From: Eledone cirrhosa
Lineage: Eukaryota
Assembly (NCBI GenBank): GCA_964016885.1
Contig: OZ024740.1
Span: 84,754,001-84,818,000 of the forward strand
Reading direction: 5' to 3'
DNA: 64,000 nucleotides
The notes under the pieces are model-generated. The model was not told where the DNA came from. It saw nothing but the letters and a program-made list of their open reading frames with translations, and searched no databases. This document shows positions 5,852 through 18,687 of the stretch, piece after piece; position 1 is the stretch's first letter, and the number at the start of each line of letters is the position of its first letter. A program made the position numbers and the translations under genes.

Positions 5852-6283
5852 TATATATTGGTAAACGGAATAGAAAATGCTGACAAATTGTTCACAGTTG
5901 AAAAATGGTTTAATTAGGAATAAAAGAGTATTAGTGATTGTATGGGTTAGTATTCAGTTGTGGTTTTAAGTTTTTAAGTTTTTACCGGTTGCGCATTTCT
6001 AAATGCTTTTCAAAAATAATTTTGAGATAGAGTGTCCGTGCTGTTTGCTCAGAGCAAACAGCACGGACACTCTATCTCAAAATTATTTTTGAAAAGCACT
6101 TAGAAATGCGCAACCGGTAAAAACTTAAAAACTTAAAACCACAACTGAATACTAACCCATACAATCACTAATACTCTTTTATTCCTAATTAAACCATTTT
6201 TCAACTGTGAACAATTTGTCAGCATTTTCTATTCCGTTTACCAATATATAATAACTTGTGTGTTACACCTCTATTCTTTTAAC
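5852..6283. mobile_element. Fold-back PLE terminal-repeat (pLTR) hairpin in (TA)n: 199-bp arms plus 33-nt one-sided tail
   Basis: 5852-6050 is the reverse complement of 6052-6250 (one mismatch seen, 1-nt centre). Tail 6251-6283, then (TA)n. The same sequence ends the Neptune-type fragment at 38770-38968. Confidence 0.85.
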
Positions 6284-6443
6284 TATATATATATATATAT
6301 ATATATATATATATATATATATATATATATATATATATATGGGTGTTTGTGTGTGTGTGCGCGTGCGTGCATGTAGATATGTATATATGTTAGAAGTAAT
6401 GATGTTAGTGAAACAAATGTGTGTAGATTGGATCCGCATGCAT

Positions 6444-7331
6444 CTAGTGGGTGGGGGGAGCTATCTGGATGCGTCAGCGTGTGATGTGCTGCACTTATCG
6501 TCGCATTTTCATTTCGTGAAATGGGGCTGTGAGAGGATTATGTATTTAGTGTTATCGGCTTTTTAAGTTTTCGTTATGACTACGTTTGTTGTTGTATAAA
6601 TTGATGTGTTACTTAGTTATCAAAGTTTATTTCGCGTTCCTGAACGAAGAGGGGGAATGATCTATTATAGAGAGAGGGAAGAGCGACGGAGAGAGTAAAG
6701 CTAAGAAACCATAAGGAGGTGTGTTAAACCTCGAAGCATGAAGAGAGTGAAGCAGTTAAATTATAGAGAGGGGGAATAATCTATTTTAGAGAGAGGGAAA
6801 AGCGACGGAGAGAGTAAAGCTATGTTTGTTGTATAAATTGATGTGTTGCTTAGTTTTCAAAGTTTGTGTCGCGTTCCTTGAAAAGAAGTTTTATCGCTGT
6901 TGGAAACTGTAATGGTGATAGGGTAGTAGACAGAGGCAGTAACCTTTTAAAGAGAGTTGCAGATGAGATTGAGGGCGGAGTAGAGGGAGGGATGAACCTT
7001 TTAAAGAGAGTTGCAGAGGAGATTGAGAGTGGAGTAGAGGGAGGGATGAACCTTTTAAAGAGAGTTGCAGCATGTATGTAGTTTCATAGATTGTTGATGG
7101 TAGTGGATAGAGTGAATAAGCGTGTAAGAGAGAGGTTTACAGCATGTATTTAGTTTTATCGATTTTTTTTCATAGAAGCAGAAAATATTTGGCAAAAGTT
7201 ATTATGCGTTGACCATCCTTGGTAAATTTGGAACACATTGGGGAAAAAATCATCAAAATCGGTAGAGAAATGTGGAAATGCATAAAAATCATACACACAC
7301 AGAGACAGACATCTTCCGTTTTATATATAGA
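6444..7331 (-). mobile_element. Putative non-autonomous Helitron-like element with internal tandem repeats
   Basis: Minus strand begins TCTATATATAAAACGGAAGATGTCTGTC (Helitron-type 5' end). Contains 54-bp repeats (6941-7070) and duplicated blocks. The 3' CTAG is uncertain. Confidence 0.45.
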
Positions 7332-7349
7332 GAGATATACATAAGTATA

Positions 7350-7635
7350 AGAGTGTGTGTTAGTGCGAGTGTGTGGGAGTGAGGGTTTATATAGGTGTGC
7401 GTGTGTGAATTTGTTTGTAGACACCTGACCATAGCCATTGTTACCTTACGTGAACCTTAAAAATCATGAGTGCCACCCTCATAGTGAACTTGTCTATAGA
7501 ATTCTTTCCGTCTTTGTTACTCTAAATATAGTTTTTAAAGAATTCCCTTTTCTTTAAACCCACCAACCAATGACCTCCACCCATCCCAATCATCACCCTC
7601 TCCTACCACCAAAAAAGATATAAATACCACCATAT
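7350..7635 (+). repeat. Diverged copy of the Naiad 3' UTR/pLTR region, truncated before the hammerhead
   Basis: Shares blocks such as agaattcccttttctttaaa, caaccaatgacc and ccctctcctaccacc with 17460-17900. Confidence 0.65.
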
Positions 7636-8321
7636 TACTTGGATAGTCATCTTCTACAAGGACGGTGCCCCAGCATGGCCTCAGCCGGATGGCTGGAACA
7701 GGTAAAAGAGTAAAAGAGTAAAAGAGTATATATATATATATGGGTGGGTGGATGTTTACATGTATATATATATATGTGTGTGTGTGTGCATGTATATATG
7801 TATATGTATATGTATATGTATACAAATTAGATGTAATGACGTTAAGGTCACAAATGTATGTAGATTGGATTCGCATGCATCCATATGTGTGTGTGTGTGT
7901 GTGTGTGTGTGTGTGTGCGCGCGCGCGCAGCGAAAATCTCTGTAGGAAGAGAAAGGGAAAAGAATGTTCTATCTAGTGAAAGAGGGTAATTCATTCTTAC
8001 TGTGATTTCTCCCAACTTACACTGTACTATCAATTAATTCGAAGTGTTAAGAATATATCGAACACACAGTCGCAGATACGTGCATATCACATCAAATCAT
8101 ACTAGGCATTTTCTAGAACAATACTTCTTACGAACCCAAGACCAAAAAATATACCAGTTATCTACCATCTTAGTGATATTGCCCACAAGAACTTGTAACT
8201 TGCTATGCCATGAGTCAGTTCGTACAAACACAAAAGCCAAATCCGAACACCAAAATAATATATATATATAAATATATATATATATAGATATATATATATA
8301 TATATATATATATATATATAT

Positions 8322-15578: not shown

Positions 15579-17156
15579 CTGATAACTTAGTAAAAAGCGT
15601 CTCTATTAGAATATCTGGCCTCTCCGCCAACAAACATATTTTTAACGCCTCTGCCTCCTACTACAATGAATCCCTCGCCCGCAGCATTTTTAAAGAAAAG
15701 ATAACCTACCTAGAAACCACCGCAAGATTGCAGAGGAGGAATAGGCATAGGCAGATTAGCTGGTACAACCCTCCCTTCAATAGAGAGGTCTCTACACCGA
15801 TAGCTAGGATTTTCTTCACTTTGCTGAAAATACACTTCCCCATACAACATAGGTACTACACCATCTTTAATAAGAACACAGTAAGACTCTCCTACTCCAC
15901 CACACCTAACCTAGCTAGGAATATAGCCAACCACAATTCTAAAAAATTAAATAAGCCAACCACCTCCGAACCCAATCCCCGGACTGGGGCTTTGTGTAAT
16001 TGCCTAAATAAGGAAGCATGCCCACTTGAAAACAAATGCCTCACAAATGATATCGTATACAAATGCGATGTCATCTCAGGCACCGATGATTGCAATAACA
16101 AAAAAACTTCCATCGGCATGATTTCCAATAATTTTAAGACCCGTTGGTATGCCCATACCCACTCCTTCAGAAGACCGGACAAATCAAACCAGACAACACT
16201 CGCCTCCTATGTTTGGGACCTCAAAAGGAACTCCACCCCCTTCACGCTTAAATAGAAAATACTCCAGAAAGCGCGCTCTTACAACGGAGGACACAAGGGC
16301 TGCGACCTTTGTATCTCAGAGAAATACGGTCACTATGGTTATATGCGTATATTTATTGAGTACTAATTTGTATGTATATATATGTGTGTATATATATATA
16401 TGTATATGTGTGCATGTGTGTGCGTATGTATATATGTATACATATACACATATGTGCATGTGCATGTGCACACACGTGCACGTGCACGTGCACACAGGTA
16501 TACACATGTGTATCTGCAGGTGCATACATGTACATGCATACACATGCGCACGCACACACATGTACACGTGTATATATATGTATATATATGTGTATATATA
16601 TATGTATGTGTGTGTGTGTGTGTGTGTATGTGTTTGTGTGGTTCTGTGTGTGTATTTATATGTGTGTATGTGTGTATATATGTGAATATGTGTGTGTGTG
16701 TGTGTATATATATATATATGTGTGTGTGTGTGTGTGTGTGTGTGTGTGTGTGTGTGTGTGTGTGTGTGTGTGTGTGTGTGTGTGTGTGTGTGTGTATATA
16801 TGTGTGTATATGTGTGTATGTGTGTATATGTGTATATGTAGGTGTATGTATGTATGTGTGTGTGTCTATATATATATGTATATGTATATATGTATGTGTG
16901 TATGTATATATGTGTATATATGTGTGTATATATATATATATATATATATATATATATATATTCAGGTTTGAGGTTCACCACTGTATAGAGCTGGTCTATT
17001 CCGTATGGTCAATCGTAATGCAATAATATAGAGAGTACTCAACGTAAAGCAGTTCAACCGTCTTTGTTTTTGTAGTTAAATTTACACAAATCCAGCCTCC
17101 TGTCATTTCATTATAATTATTATATATATATATATATATATATATATATATATATA

Positions 17157-17313
17157 TAACGAAGGAAATGTGGTAAGGAACCAGGTGGACCATAACGCAC
17201 CAAAGTACTCAATACTTGAGGTAGTAGAGTGGGTAATAGGAACCAGTAAGGCCCGTCCAGAATTAGCCGTCGAAACGGCTTGAGCTCAGCTGTCGGGGTC
17301 TTACTGGTTCCTA
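17157..17313. mobile_element. Small fold-back insert with 3' half of a hammerhead
   Basis: 18-bp inverted repeats 17237-17254 / 17296-17313; GAAA-CGGC ttgagctca GCTG-TC at 17272-17294; left tail; (TA)n flanks. Confidence 0.6.
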
Positions 17314-17919
17314 TATATATATATATATATATATATATATATATATATATATATATATATATATATATATATATATATATATATATATATATATATGTAT
17401 ATGTGTGTATATGTATATGTATGTGTGTTTATATATATATATATGTATATGTGGATGTATGTGGGTGCGCGCGAGTGTGTGAGTGAGTGTGTTTGTGAAT
17501 GTGTCTGTTGACTTTTGGAATATAGTTTAATAGTTTAAGAGAAATTTGAAGATAATGGTATGATATGCACTCAATATTTTGAACTGGTCTATAGAATTCT
17601 CTAGGCCTTTGTCACTTAGTAGAACCTTAAAGAATTAACTTTTAAAGAATCTCCCTTTTCTTTAAATCCATCAACCATGACTGACCCCAATGATCTTATA
17701 GACACCTGAAATCTAGGCATTGTTAGCTTAAGAGAAACTTAAAAATAAGGAGTGGCACCCCATCCTGAACTTGTTTATAAATATAAACTATAGCTTTGAA
17801 GAATTAGCTTTTAATGAATTCCCTTTTCTATCAACCAATGACCTACACCAATCCCACTCCCTACCCTCTCCTACCACCTGTAGAAACCTATAAATACCAT
17901 ACTTATTTTTTGATACCCA

Positions 17920-17968
17920 GATTCCTGATGATTTCTAAAGAATGAAACAGTTCTAGTCCTGTAGAATC
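17920..17968 (+). ncRNA. Minimal type I hammerhead ribozyme (Naiad pLTR, right arm)
   Basis: GATTC-CTGATGA-TTTCTAAAGAAT-GAAA-CAGTTCTAGTCCTG-TA-GAATC. Confidence 0.88.
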
Positions 17969-18687
17969 TCATCTATATTAAAACTATATATATATATATC
18001 CGTATTTGTCTGTAAGAACGAGAGAGAGAGAGAGAGAGAGAGAGAGAGATGAGAGAGAGAGAGAGAGAGAGAGAGAGAGGAGAGAGAGAGAGAGAGAGAG
18101 AGAGAGAGAGAGAGAGAGAGGGAGAGAGAGAATGCTATACTCAATAATTAAACTGTTTGCAAAAATTCTCATTAAATTAAAATTGACCTCAAAGTTGCTG
18201 AAAAAATAGGAAATCCTTGTGGTATTGTCGTGAAATTCAATAGCTCAGACAAGTGACAGTATTATGTTCCGTTATCAACATCTCTCAATGAAGTGAAATT
18301 TACTCTTTGTTAAAGAAATAGAAAAACAACCTACCGCTTTTTGTTAGCCAGTCACGAACGAAGAAGATAGTTTCTTGAAACTGGAAATAAATTTGTCATA
18401 CTTAAGGGAAAATGTAATCGTTCTGGGTTTTAGTTTCCAAATAACATTTTCTAATTCAGAAATTATACCCGGTAAAATTCTTTCTAAGTCTTATCTGCGT
18501 GTAAAATTATATCAACTGGTGGATCTTGGCATAAGCAGACTAAGCTTTGTTGGTAGCTGTTAAGAGTGAAACCTATTGCGGATAGGTTTCACTCTTAACA
18601 TTGCCTGATAACATAGATCTAATTTTAATGTCAAATTTATCTTTTGAAATTATCTTTCCTTTCTTTGAGAATTGCCATCAATTACTA

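Follow-up and report, generated by a model that had tools for sequence, protein, structure and literature searches.

Inverted, tailed blocks in the TA repeats of an Eledone cirrhosa locus as probable ends of Penelope-like elements

A stretch of 64,000 nucleotides from Eledone cirrhosa (NCBI GenBank assembly GCA_964016885.1, contig OZ024740.1, positions 84,754,001 to 84,818,000 of the forward strand; hereafter the window) contains 70 (TA)n tracts, and between them lie blocks built as an inverted pair of arms, only one of which carries an additional tail. What are these blocks, and how did they come to be mirrored? As judged from their sequences, they are almost certainly the 5'-truncated, head-to-head ends (pseudo-long terminal repeats, pLTRs) of several families of Penelope-like elements (PLEs), mostly of the Hydra clade. 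By what mechanism PLEs generate inverted copies with a tail is an open question (PMC8557442, PMC11167929; comparisons here and below refer to the accessible portions of the sources cited by accession or preprint number). For the locus as a whole, the likely explanation is that of truncated PLE ends in TA repeats, with the mirrored pairs produced by priming at two sites.

Identity of the blocks

Comparison of the window with itself recovered the inverted arms and the one-sided tail in all seven blocks for which a preliminary description, made from the sequence alone, had proposed them, at positions correct to a few bases (Table 1). The same design was found in the D and O blocks. The broader proposal that almost every unique block is built in this way holds for those listed, but not for 6341-8257 (~1.9 kb), which has another design, nor for the family G block, which is a direct partial tandem in the window. 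The families are multi-copy, as had been expected: ten of the eleven family queries matched many copies in the 3.0-Gb genome. First-look candidates, which are not copy numbers, amounted to 60 for A, 1015 for B, 1406 for C, 1532 for D, 84 for F, 1676 for G, 1631 for H, 705 for I, 919 for J and 2427 for K. The E query gave no match, missing even the window copy, and is uninformative on abundance; E copies were seen in sequence flanking the loci of other families. The copies analysed below come from the best-scoring 20-30 loci per family with their flanks, ~1.0 Mb in all.

The preliminary description had called for linking each family to full-length PLE open reading frames (ORFs). B, C/H, D, E, F and J were linked to an endonuclease end, A to a Neptune-type element and I to an ORF start, whereas G and K gave no link. 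An ORF, a simple-repeat untranslated region (UTR) and C occur in succession within 1.5 kb in 4 of the 25 H loci and in two longer stretches; in all, four longer stretches link C to the ORF. At loci L236 and L237 the ORF begins directly after the C tail; its start, reverse transcriptase (RT) and linker lie in one frame, and the endonuclease resumes past a frameshift. A single ORF with an RT followed by a C-terminal GIY-YIG endonuclease is found in these two loci and in the window ORF (14534-15586). RWR at position 37 and DKT at 115 were read in the L237 ORF together with CxCx5C (these RT motifs were read in family C only). In the window ORF, CDLC and CPNCMH occur and CCHH is absent. The CxCx5C linker is present in C/H, B (locus L089) and D, appears as CxCx5F in the one E copy read, and is reduced to NCx5C in the F copy; CxxC and CxH were found in C/H, B, D, E and F, and the J motifs were identified by eye. 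Endonuclease ends lie upstream of the pLTR in 12 of 25 B loci, 10 of 25 D loci, 4 of 20 J loci and three longer F stretches, and for E in one stretch as well as within the window block itself. The Hydra clade is defined by RW(K/R), DKT, the CxCx5C linker, CxxC plus CxH and the absence of CCHH (PMC8557442), and matching to this definition places B, C/H, D, E, F and J putatively in it. A Pfam scan of both Hydra ORF fragments returned no family. At a single locus (L004) an I tail precedes a Hydra-type ORF start.

Family A has the Neptune-clade set of GxKF (as KGLKF), DKG, a CX2-5CxxC linker (as CX4CxxC), the CCHH residues plus a GIY-YIG at the C-terminus in the frames of one locus (L262), its endonuclease matches PF01541 (E=1.9e-7, Pfam), and the endonuclease link was seen in one longer stretch and in the second window copy; by these motifs, A is assigned to the Neptune-type PLEs. 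The preliminary description had pointed to Naiads as a source. Naiads share the (TA)n preference, the tail and the inverted copies, but they have an N-terminal endonuclease and no canonical hammerheads, whereas the linked ORFs here, Hydra-clade or Neptune-type, all have a C-terminal endonuclease, the motif read is DKT or DKG instead of DKA, and hammerheads are present; a Naiad origin was therefore rejected.

With G left out, 350 of 424 element ends adjoin (TA)n under a strict definition, compared with a background of 1.1%, and 401 of 424 under a relaxed one (background 3.8%). The earlier proposal was right in taking the blocks for ends of PLEs that bear type I hammerheads, share a (TA)n target and insert in inverted, tailed form.

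Much of this is known PLE biology. The preliminary description knew of no account of such a set, but a tail on one inverted pLTR is described in PMC3846280, and hammerheads and (TA)n insertion of Hydra PLEs, including Hydra-1_Obim of Octopus bimaculoides, in PMC8557442; the one-arm tail, TA targeting, hammerheads and a cephalopod Hydra family are thus already known. The elements studied here resemble these Hydra PLEs in motif set and (TA)n insertion, and the C and G hammerheads are of the ctgatgat...tgaa type (PMC8557442 File S2). They differ from the listing in PMC8557442 in that at least six families co-exist, as against one for a cephalopod ('no pLTR'), in having 3' UTRs of ~1-2 kb with simple repeats, and in the U4C cores of D and J and the U3:A8 cores of B and I, which are not among the File S2 rows examined. 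For Octopus vulgaris, 31 recently active PLE families are reported, in an annotation whose accessible part mentions neither 'Hydra' nor 'ribozyme' (PMC13282606). Some of the families may already appear in the Craig 2021 supplement, Repbase or Dfam. The literature searched, which left most subscription journals, Repbase and Dfam outside, held no count of long and short ends in pairs and no nesting in self-carried TA tracts. The near-strict count, the longer tails and such nesting, not found in print, are apparently new and should be useful to specialists. In annotation, small palindromes and TA-rich stretches of this type could be mistaken for miniature inverted-repeat transposable elements (MITEs), short interspersed nuclear elements (SINEs) or host microsatellites.

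Two 3' ends and the origin of the mirrored pairs

Eight families terminate at either a short or a long 3' end, the distance between the two being 40 nt in A, 68 in C, 78 in D, 80 in I, 90 in F, 113 in E, 132 in J and 162 in B; those of G are ~64 nt apart. After removal of matches below 78% identity or shorter than 28 nt, and of ends lying no more than 40 nt from the edge of a locus, 100 distinct inverted pairs were collected: 87 joined a long to a short end, 4 were long+long, 9 combined a short with an unclassified end and none was short+short. Long+short pairs thus make up 87 of the 91 that could be classified, and 48 of 50 when family I, whose query contained the junction, is set aside. Pairs met by chance in flanks numbered 26 long+short, 3 long+long and 6 short+unclassified, and three longer pairs (L233, L234 and L235) were long+short by eye. 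The automatic finder returned no E or G pair; G was classed separately, and among its 16 inverted clusters all 8 that could be classified were long+short, the other 8 having a broken or unclassified end. The arms of a pair diverge by 3.7% from each other, compared with 8.3% between pairs (lower within the pair in 63 of 67), and junctions are copy-specific, being distinct in all 14 C and all 14 F pairs.

This architecture matches the PLE insertion unit, with its truncated head-to-head copy, palindromic junction and one-arm tail (PMC3846280; PMC8557442 Fig. 2), the tail lying between two RT start sites (PMC11167929). Published tails measure 30-40 nt and are 'optional' (PMC3846280, PMC8557442, PMC11167929), whereas those studied here span 40-162 nt in near-strict long+short pairs. 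In vitro, with the Poseidon PLE of the anole, both strands of the target are nicked and extended, and RT starts at two internal sites bounding the tail; the enzyme is a predicted dimer, and insertion persists in ribozyme mutants (PMC11167929).

We lean towards a two-primer step, in which each target nick would take one of the two start sites. The GIY-YIG/RT complex would nick both strands of (TA)n. Priming from one nick would occur at the short site, which in C, D, F and J lies 21-48 nt beyond the hammerhead cut, and priming from its partner at the long site, a further 40-162 nt beyond. The two primers would copy the same or a sibling RNA, mostly stopping early, and the two cDNA ends would be joined centrally. 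End positions are not dictated by the hammerhead, which is likely a passenger in the insertion step. New insertions would bring fresh targets through their long, (TA)n-rich UTRs, which would explain the nests. The near-strict pairing makes a sharp prediction for in vitro work, namely that the two nicks use different start sites.

Several points weigh against this reading. In the anole system neither strand favoured one start site over the other in vitro (PMC11167929), so that a coupling of start site to strand is conjectural. Three of the long+long pairs are genuine, one arm of each being nearly tail-only (the fourth proved to be long+short on inspection). Arm similarity could also stem from later conversion of one arm by the other, one junction is common to 14 of 39 family I pairs, the choice of best-scoring loci favours young copies, and target-site duplications are masked by the TA tracts. 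Finally, no endonuclease end was linked for G, I, K or O, for the last of which no search for an ORF link was made.

The rival that survives best, which we nevertheless regard as rather unlikely, is a single priming at the long site, after which the cDNA would prime itself as a hairpin and be copied up to the short site, with later central deletions shortening the arms. It accounts for the identity of the arms and for the many near-perfect palindromes, the two 5' ends being no more than 12 nt apart in 37 of 87 pairs (short references raise this count for F and I), and junction palindromes were read as self-priming by Arkhipova 2013 (PMC3846280). It predicts, however, that the short arm lies inside the long one, whereas among 87 pairs it is the short arm that extends beyond its partner on the 5' side by more than 12 nt in 37, and the long arm in 13, a comparison that later deletions could blur. 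It also fits poorly with tail-only long arms facing extended short arms, as in the window copy of D, whose plus arm (10590-10675) is nearly all tail (86 versus 669 nt). Single-arm copies, too, end at the short site, which therefore is itself a priming site.

That the small fold-backs are instead independent non-autonomous elements, MITE-like or ribozyme, moving as whole palindromes, is very improbable. The shared family I junction and the non-coding nature of G and K would suit such units, yet nearly all junctions differ in A, B, C and F, and the same ends continue into coding PLEs. Moreover, the I copies with the common junction differ in subfamily letters that are mirrored in both arms, which fits a truncation hot spot, though the query selected this junction. 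An assembly or fold-back read artefact of a TA-rich region is hardly credible, for even if the locus lacks spanning reads and the best-matching public run, with contigs only, has 0.66 of the G words, the arms differ by up to 5% plus indels, nested inserts sit in one arm only, the same two ends recur across many contigs, and G occurs with two opposite-strand joints in an unrelated public run.

Hammerhead motifs and the non-coding families G and K

Seven minimal type I hammerheads had been proposed in the window. Those of C (8903), D (9963), G (13231) and J (41828) were recovered, that of B (8659) is borderline, that of E (12097) partial, and that of K (42285) failed. A relaxed type I descriptor gave seven matches in these four families (C three times, D and G once, J twice), where 100 shuffled windows averaged 0.07 and never exceeded 2; it had been loosened after the candidates were seen, by allowing U4C and a 10.1-11.1 mismatch, and the original strict version found only a weak 12102/10870 pair and missed C, D, G and J. 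Across 257 loci and the window, 235 descriptor contexts fell into 19 sequence clusters, and the diversity of hammerheads is therefore real.

The motif reads as canonical in C and F, of the U4C type in D and J, of the U3:A8 type in B (with a short helix I) and in one long copy of I, and confined to the core in E, where at 12102 the core and helix II are present and a clean helix I and helix III are missing. U4C is a known natural variant with reduced activity in vitro (PMC3088659), and the U3:A8 core has been published (PMC4209133). The U-U at 10.1-11.1 in C occurs in Craig File S2 (PMC8557442), yet Perreault's filter would reject it. Longer O copies show a hammerhead-like fold by eye. Near 6089, A has a degenerate hammerhead-like motif with a U3:A8 core, which departs from Neptune PLEs in that GCA replaces GAA, as it does in each of the 12 variants displayed out of 40 distinct ones. 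The degenerate motifs of A (6089) and E (12102) stand at the ribozyme position and are kept across the displayed copies. No hammerhead was among the 150 of 164 matches listed in an Rfam scan of the window, which were miRNA-type matches to simple repeats and palindromes. Monomers and dimers folded without constraints mostly adopted structures other than hammerheads, and these predictions were not counted as evidence.

The ribozyme cut was considered as the element boundary and rejected: the short ends are found 21-300 nt beyond it, C junctions cluster upstream of it (reference 466-477, with the cut at 513), and the 5' ends of G are scattered. Truncation hot spots were seen directly before the hammerhead in C (at the junctions just mentioned, also in the small window fold-back) and inside helix II, after TTTAG, in I (window block and loci L136-L160); they could mark the 5' end of the RNA.

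The preliminary description had also envisaged non-autonomous ribozyme elements. Most blocks are instead truncated copies of coding PLEs, and the proposal stands for G, the only block of the window that is a non-coding hammerhead element, being tandem and retrozyme-like with the insertion signature of PLEs. No endonuclease end was found upstream in 30 G loci, a weak result by itself since C and F also score 0. One locus (L267) has four full units and four hammerheads. Across copies, 97.6% of the cells in the helices are paired and none of 500 shuffles reaches the observed score; one of 12 pairs covaries, in helix I (GU/AU/UG/CG), among related rows. The long end lies ~58 nt into the following unit and copies have up to four full units, so that the template would be multimeric or circular. 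G likely borrows the PLE machinery, copying a multimeric or circular RNA. At L258:3111-3780 a partial G tail is joined without TA to an ORF fragment of the Hydra family F in the same orientation, a possible template jump and, as one case, the single hint of a shared enzyme. In four public runs G matched 0, 1, 6 and 4,881 contigs, and the listing of public runs with G included no RNA run.

Like non-LTR retrozymes and the non-autonomous Chlamys elements (MRC1), G is non-coding and head-to-tail, each of its units bearing a type I hammerhead. Its ~520 nt exceed the ~170-400 nt of retrozyme circRNAs (PMC7229834) and are within the 51-972 bp range of retrozymes (Li et al. 2026, bioRxiv 10.64898/2026.07.22.740005). 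Unlike retrozymes, it has its own (TA)n and the inverted-plus-tail signature of PLEs. The published argument for mobilisation of retrozymes by PLEs draws on co-occurrence and pLTR homology rather than on insertion geometry (PMC7229834; bioRxiv 10.64898/2026.07.22.740005), and G adds evidence of the insertion-signature kind.

K likewise looks non-coding, yet it is hammerhead-free. At 42285 a hammerhead core (CUGANGA or UUGANAA) is present in none of 12 variants displayed (of 26 distinct), no K locus matches the descriptor, and an Rfam scan of 42030-42900 gave three chance matches. K has direct partial tandems only, with one 3' end and subfamilies down to 65-75% identity, and no inverted copy was found in 20 loci. 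A pseudoknot considered for K is unsupported, 474-477 of 500 shuffles reaching the observed values.

The nested C/H insertion and other features of the window

The interval 8819-17985 is a single inverted insertion of the Hydra-clade C/H element, in which the remaining elements are nested; the preliminary description had overlooked it as one element hosting the others. The mirroring of its arms extends to the punctuation by simple repeats. The C/H 3' UTR hosts, in its TA tracts, seven younger insertions, namely small C, D, E, F and G in the left arm and O and I in the right (Table 1). At six other loci, 561-1968 nt separate the ORF end from the first C match, with 53-96% simple repeat and 5-23 (TA)6 runs, and the C/H element therefore brings its own target. 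More tentatively, such nests may feed themselves: elements with (TA)n in their UTRs, inserting by an asymmetric two-primer rule across Hydra and Neptune and exploited in trans by G, might produce much of the genome's microsatellites, an idea that we hold with some doubt.

Table 1. Positions in the window of the PLE blocks, of families G and K and of hammerhead motifs (self-comparison: seven arm pairs with tail recovered by comparing the window with itself).
Feature	Position	Strand	Remarks
Family A fold-back	5859-6283	.	Neptune-type PLE end; short end 5859, long end 6283; self-comparison
Family B fold-back	8323-8752	.	Putative Hydra-clade pLTR; long end 8323 (162-nt tail), short end 8752; self-comparison
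B hammerhead variant	8663	+	U3:A8 core; helix I of 2 bp plus bulge; borderline
C/H long-end arm	8819-15586	-	RT thumb and GIY-YIG ORF 15586-14534, simple-repeat 3' UTR, pLTR, long end 8819
Family C, label	8819-9500		
C/H long-end arm hammerhead	core 8946	-	In pLTR
Nested small family C fold-back	9508-9703	.	Ends at 9508 (short) and 9703 (long); core of hammerhead at 9573 (+); self-comparison
Nested family D (Hydra)	9939-10675	.	Minus arm with U4C hammerhead core 10030 and short end 9939
Nested family E (Hydra)	10722-12363	.	Endonuclease C-terminus 10906-11100 (+), UTR, long end 12363; inverted short arm ends at 10722; self-comparison
Nested family F fold-back (Hydra)	12436-12673	.	Cut off inside hammerhead, which is whole in other copies; self-comparison
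Nested family G	13053-13590	+	Non-coding head-to-tail unit of ~480-520 nt; internal (TA)n; terminates at long end
G minimal hammerhead	core 13236	+	Helix III palindromic
Family H (ORF), label	14340-16380		
C/H short-end arm	15579-17985	+	ORF fragment 15579-16328, simple-repeat UTR, pLTR 17480-17985 (family C label), short end 17985
Nested family O fold-back	16962-17120	.	Tail-rich long arm plus short arm
Nested family I fold-back	17159-17311	.	Only 3' half of the family's U3:A8 hammerhead; self-comparison
C/H short-end arm hammerhead	core 17925	+	In pLTR 17480-17985
Second family A copy	38776-40472	-	Neptune-type GIY-YIG end 40012-40413, simple-repeat UTR, short end
Family J fold-back	40600-41917	.	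Hydra; ends at 40600 (long, with 132-nt tail) and 41917 (short); self-comparison
J hammerhead (U4C)	40818	-	Descriptor match
J hammerhead (U4C)	41832	+	Descriptor match
Family K	42037-42899	-	619-nt head-to-tail unit in (TA)n; outside fold-back design

A further TA-flanked, tailed family (M/N/P) occupies 26016-26173, 26264-26403, 26459-26530 and 62246-62493 and is frequent in the flanks of other loci; its degenerate hammerhead-like motif is CAGAAGA...GAAA, with helices I and III failing to close. Small palindromes devoid of (TA)n flanks lie at 4449-4682, 18558-18600, 37643-37705 and 58113-58194, and no further copies of those at 4449, 37643 and 58113 were present in the sampled loci. Perfect 220-nt inverted repeats, ~530 nt apart and again lacking TA flanks, are found at 34183-35153 and are MITE-like or DNA-transposon-like.

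The window also contains mobile elements of other kinds. A broken Helitron-like coding region for a Rep/PIF1 helicase (PF05970, PF21530) spans 19155-23868 (+), and directly 3' of it, at 24064-24142 (+), is a weak match to the hepatitis delta virus (HDV) ribozyme (RF02682, 27.9 bits, below the gathering threshold), probably due to chance. A long interspersed nuclear element with ORF1 and an RT frame of 898 amino acids (RVT_1, zf-RVT), which we take to be L1/Tx1-like, lies at 28227-33589 (+). A SINE-like repeat of ~190 nt is very frequent over 35693-63570, partly as inverted pairs, with copies for example at 44271-44380, 47425-47961, 54276-54920 and 56460-56661. Finally, 48380-53838 is a Gypsy-like long terminal repeat (LTR) retrotransposon with long gag-like and pol-like frames and 264-nt direct repeats that are 99.6% identical.

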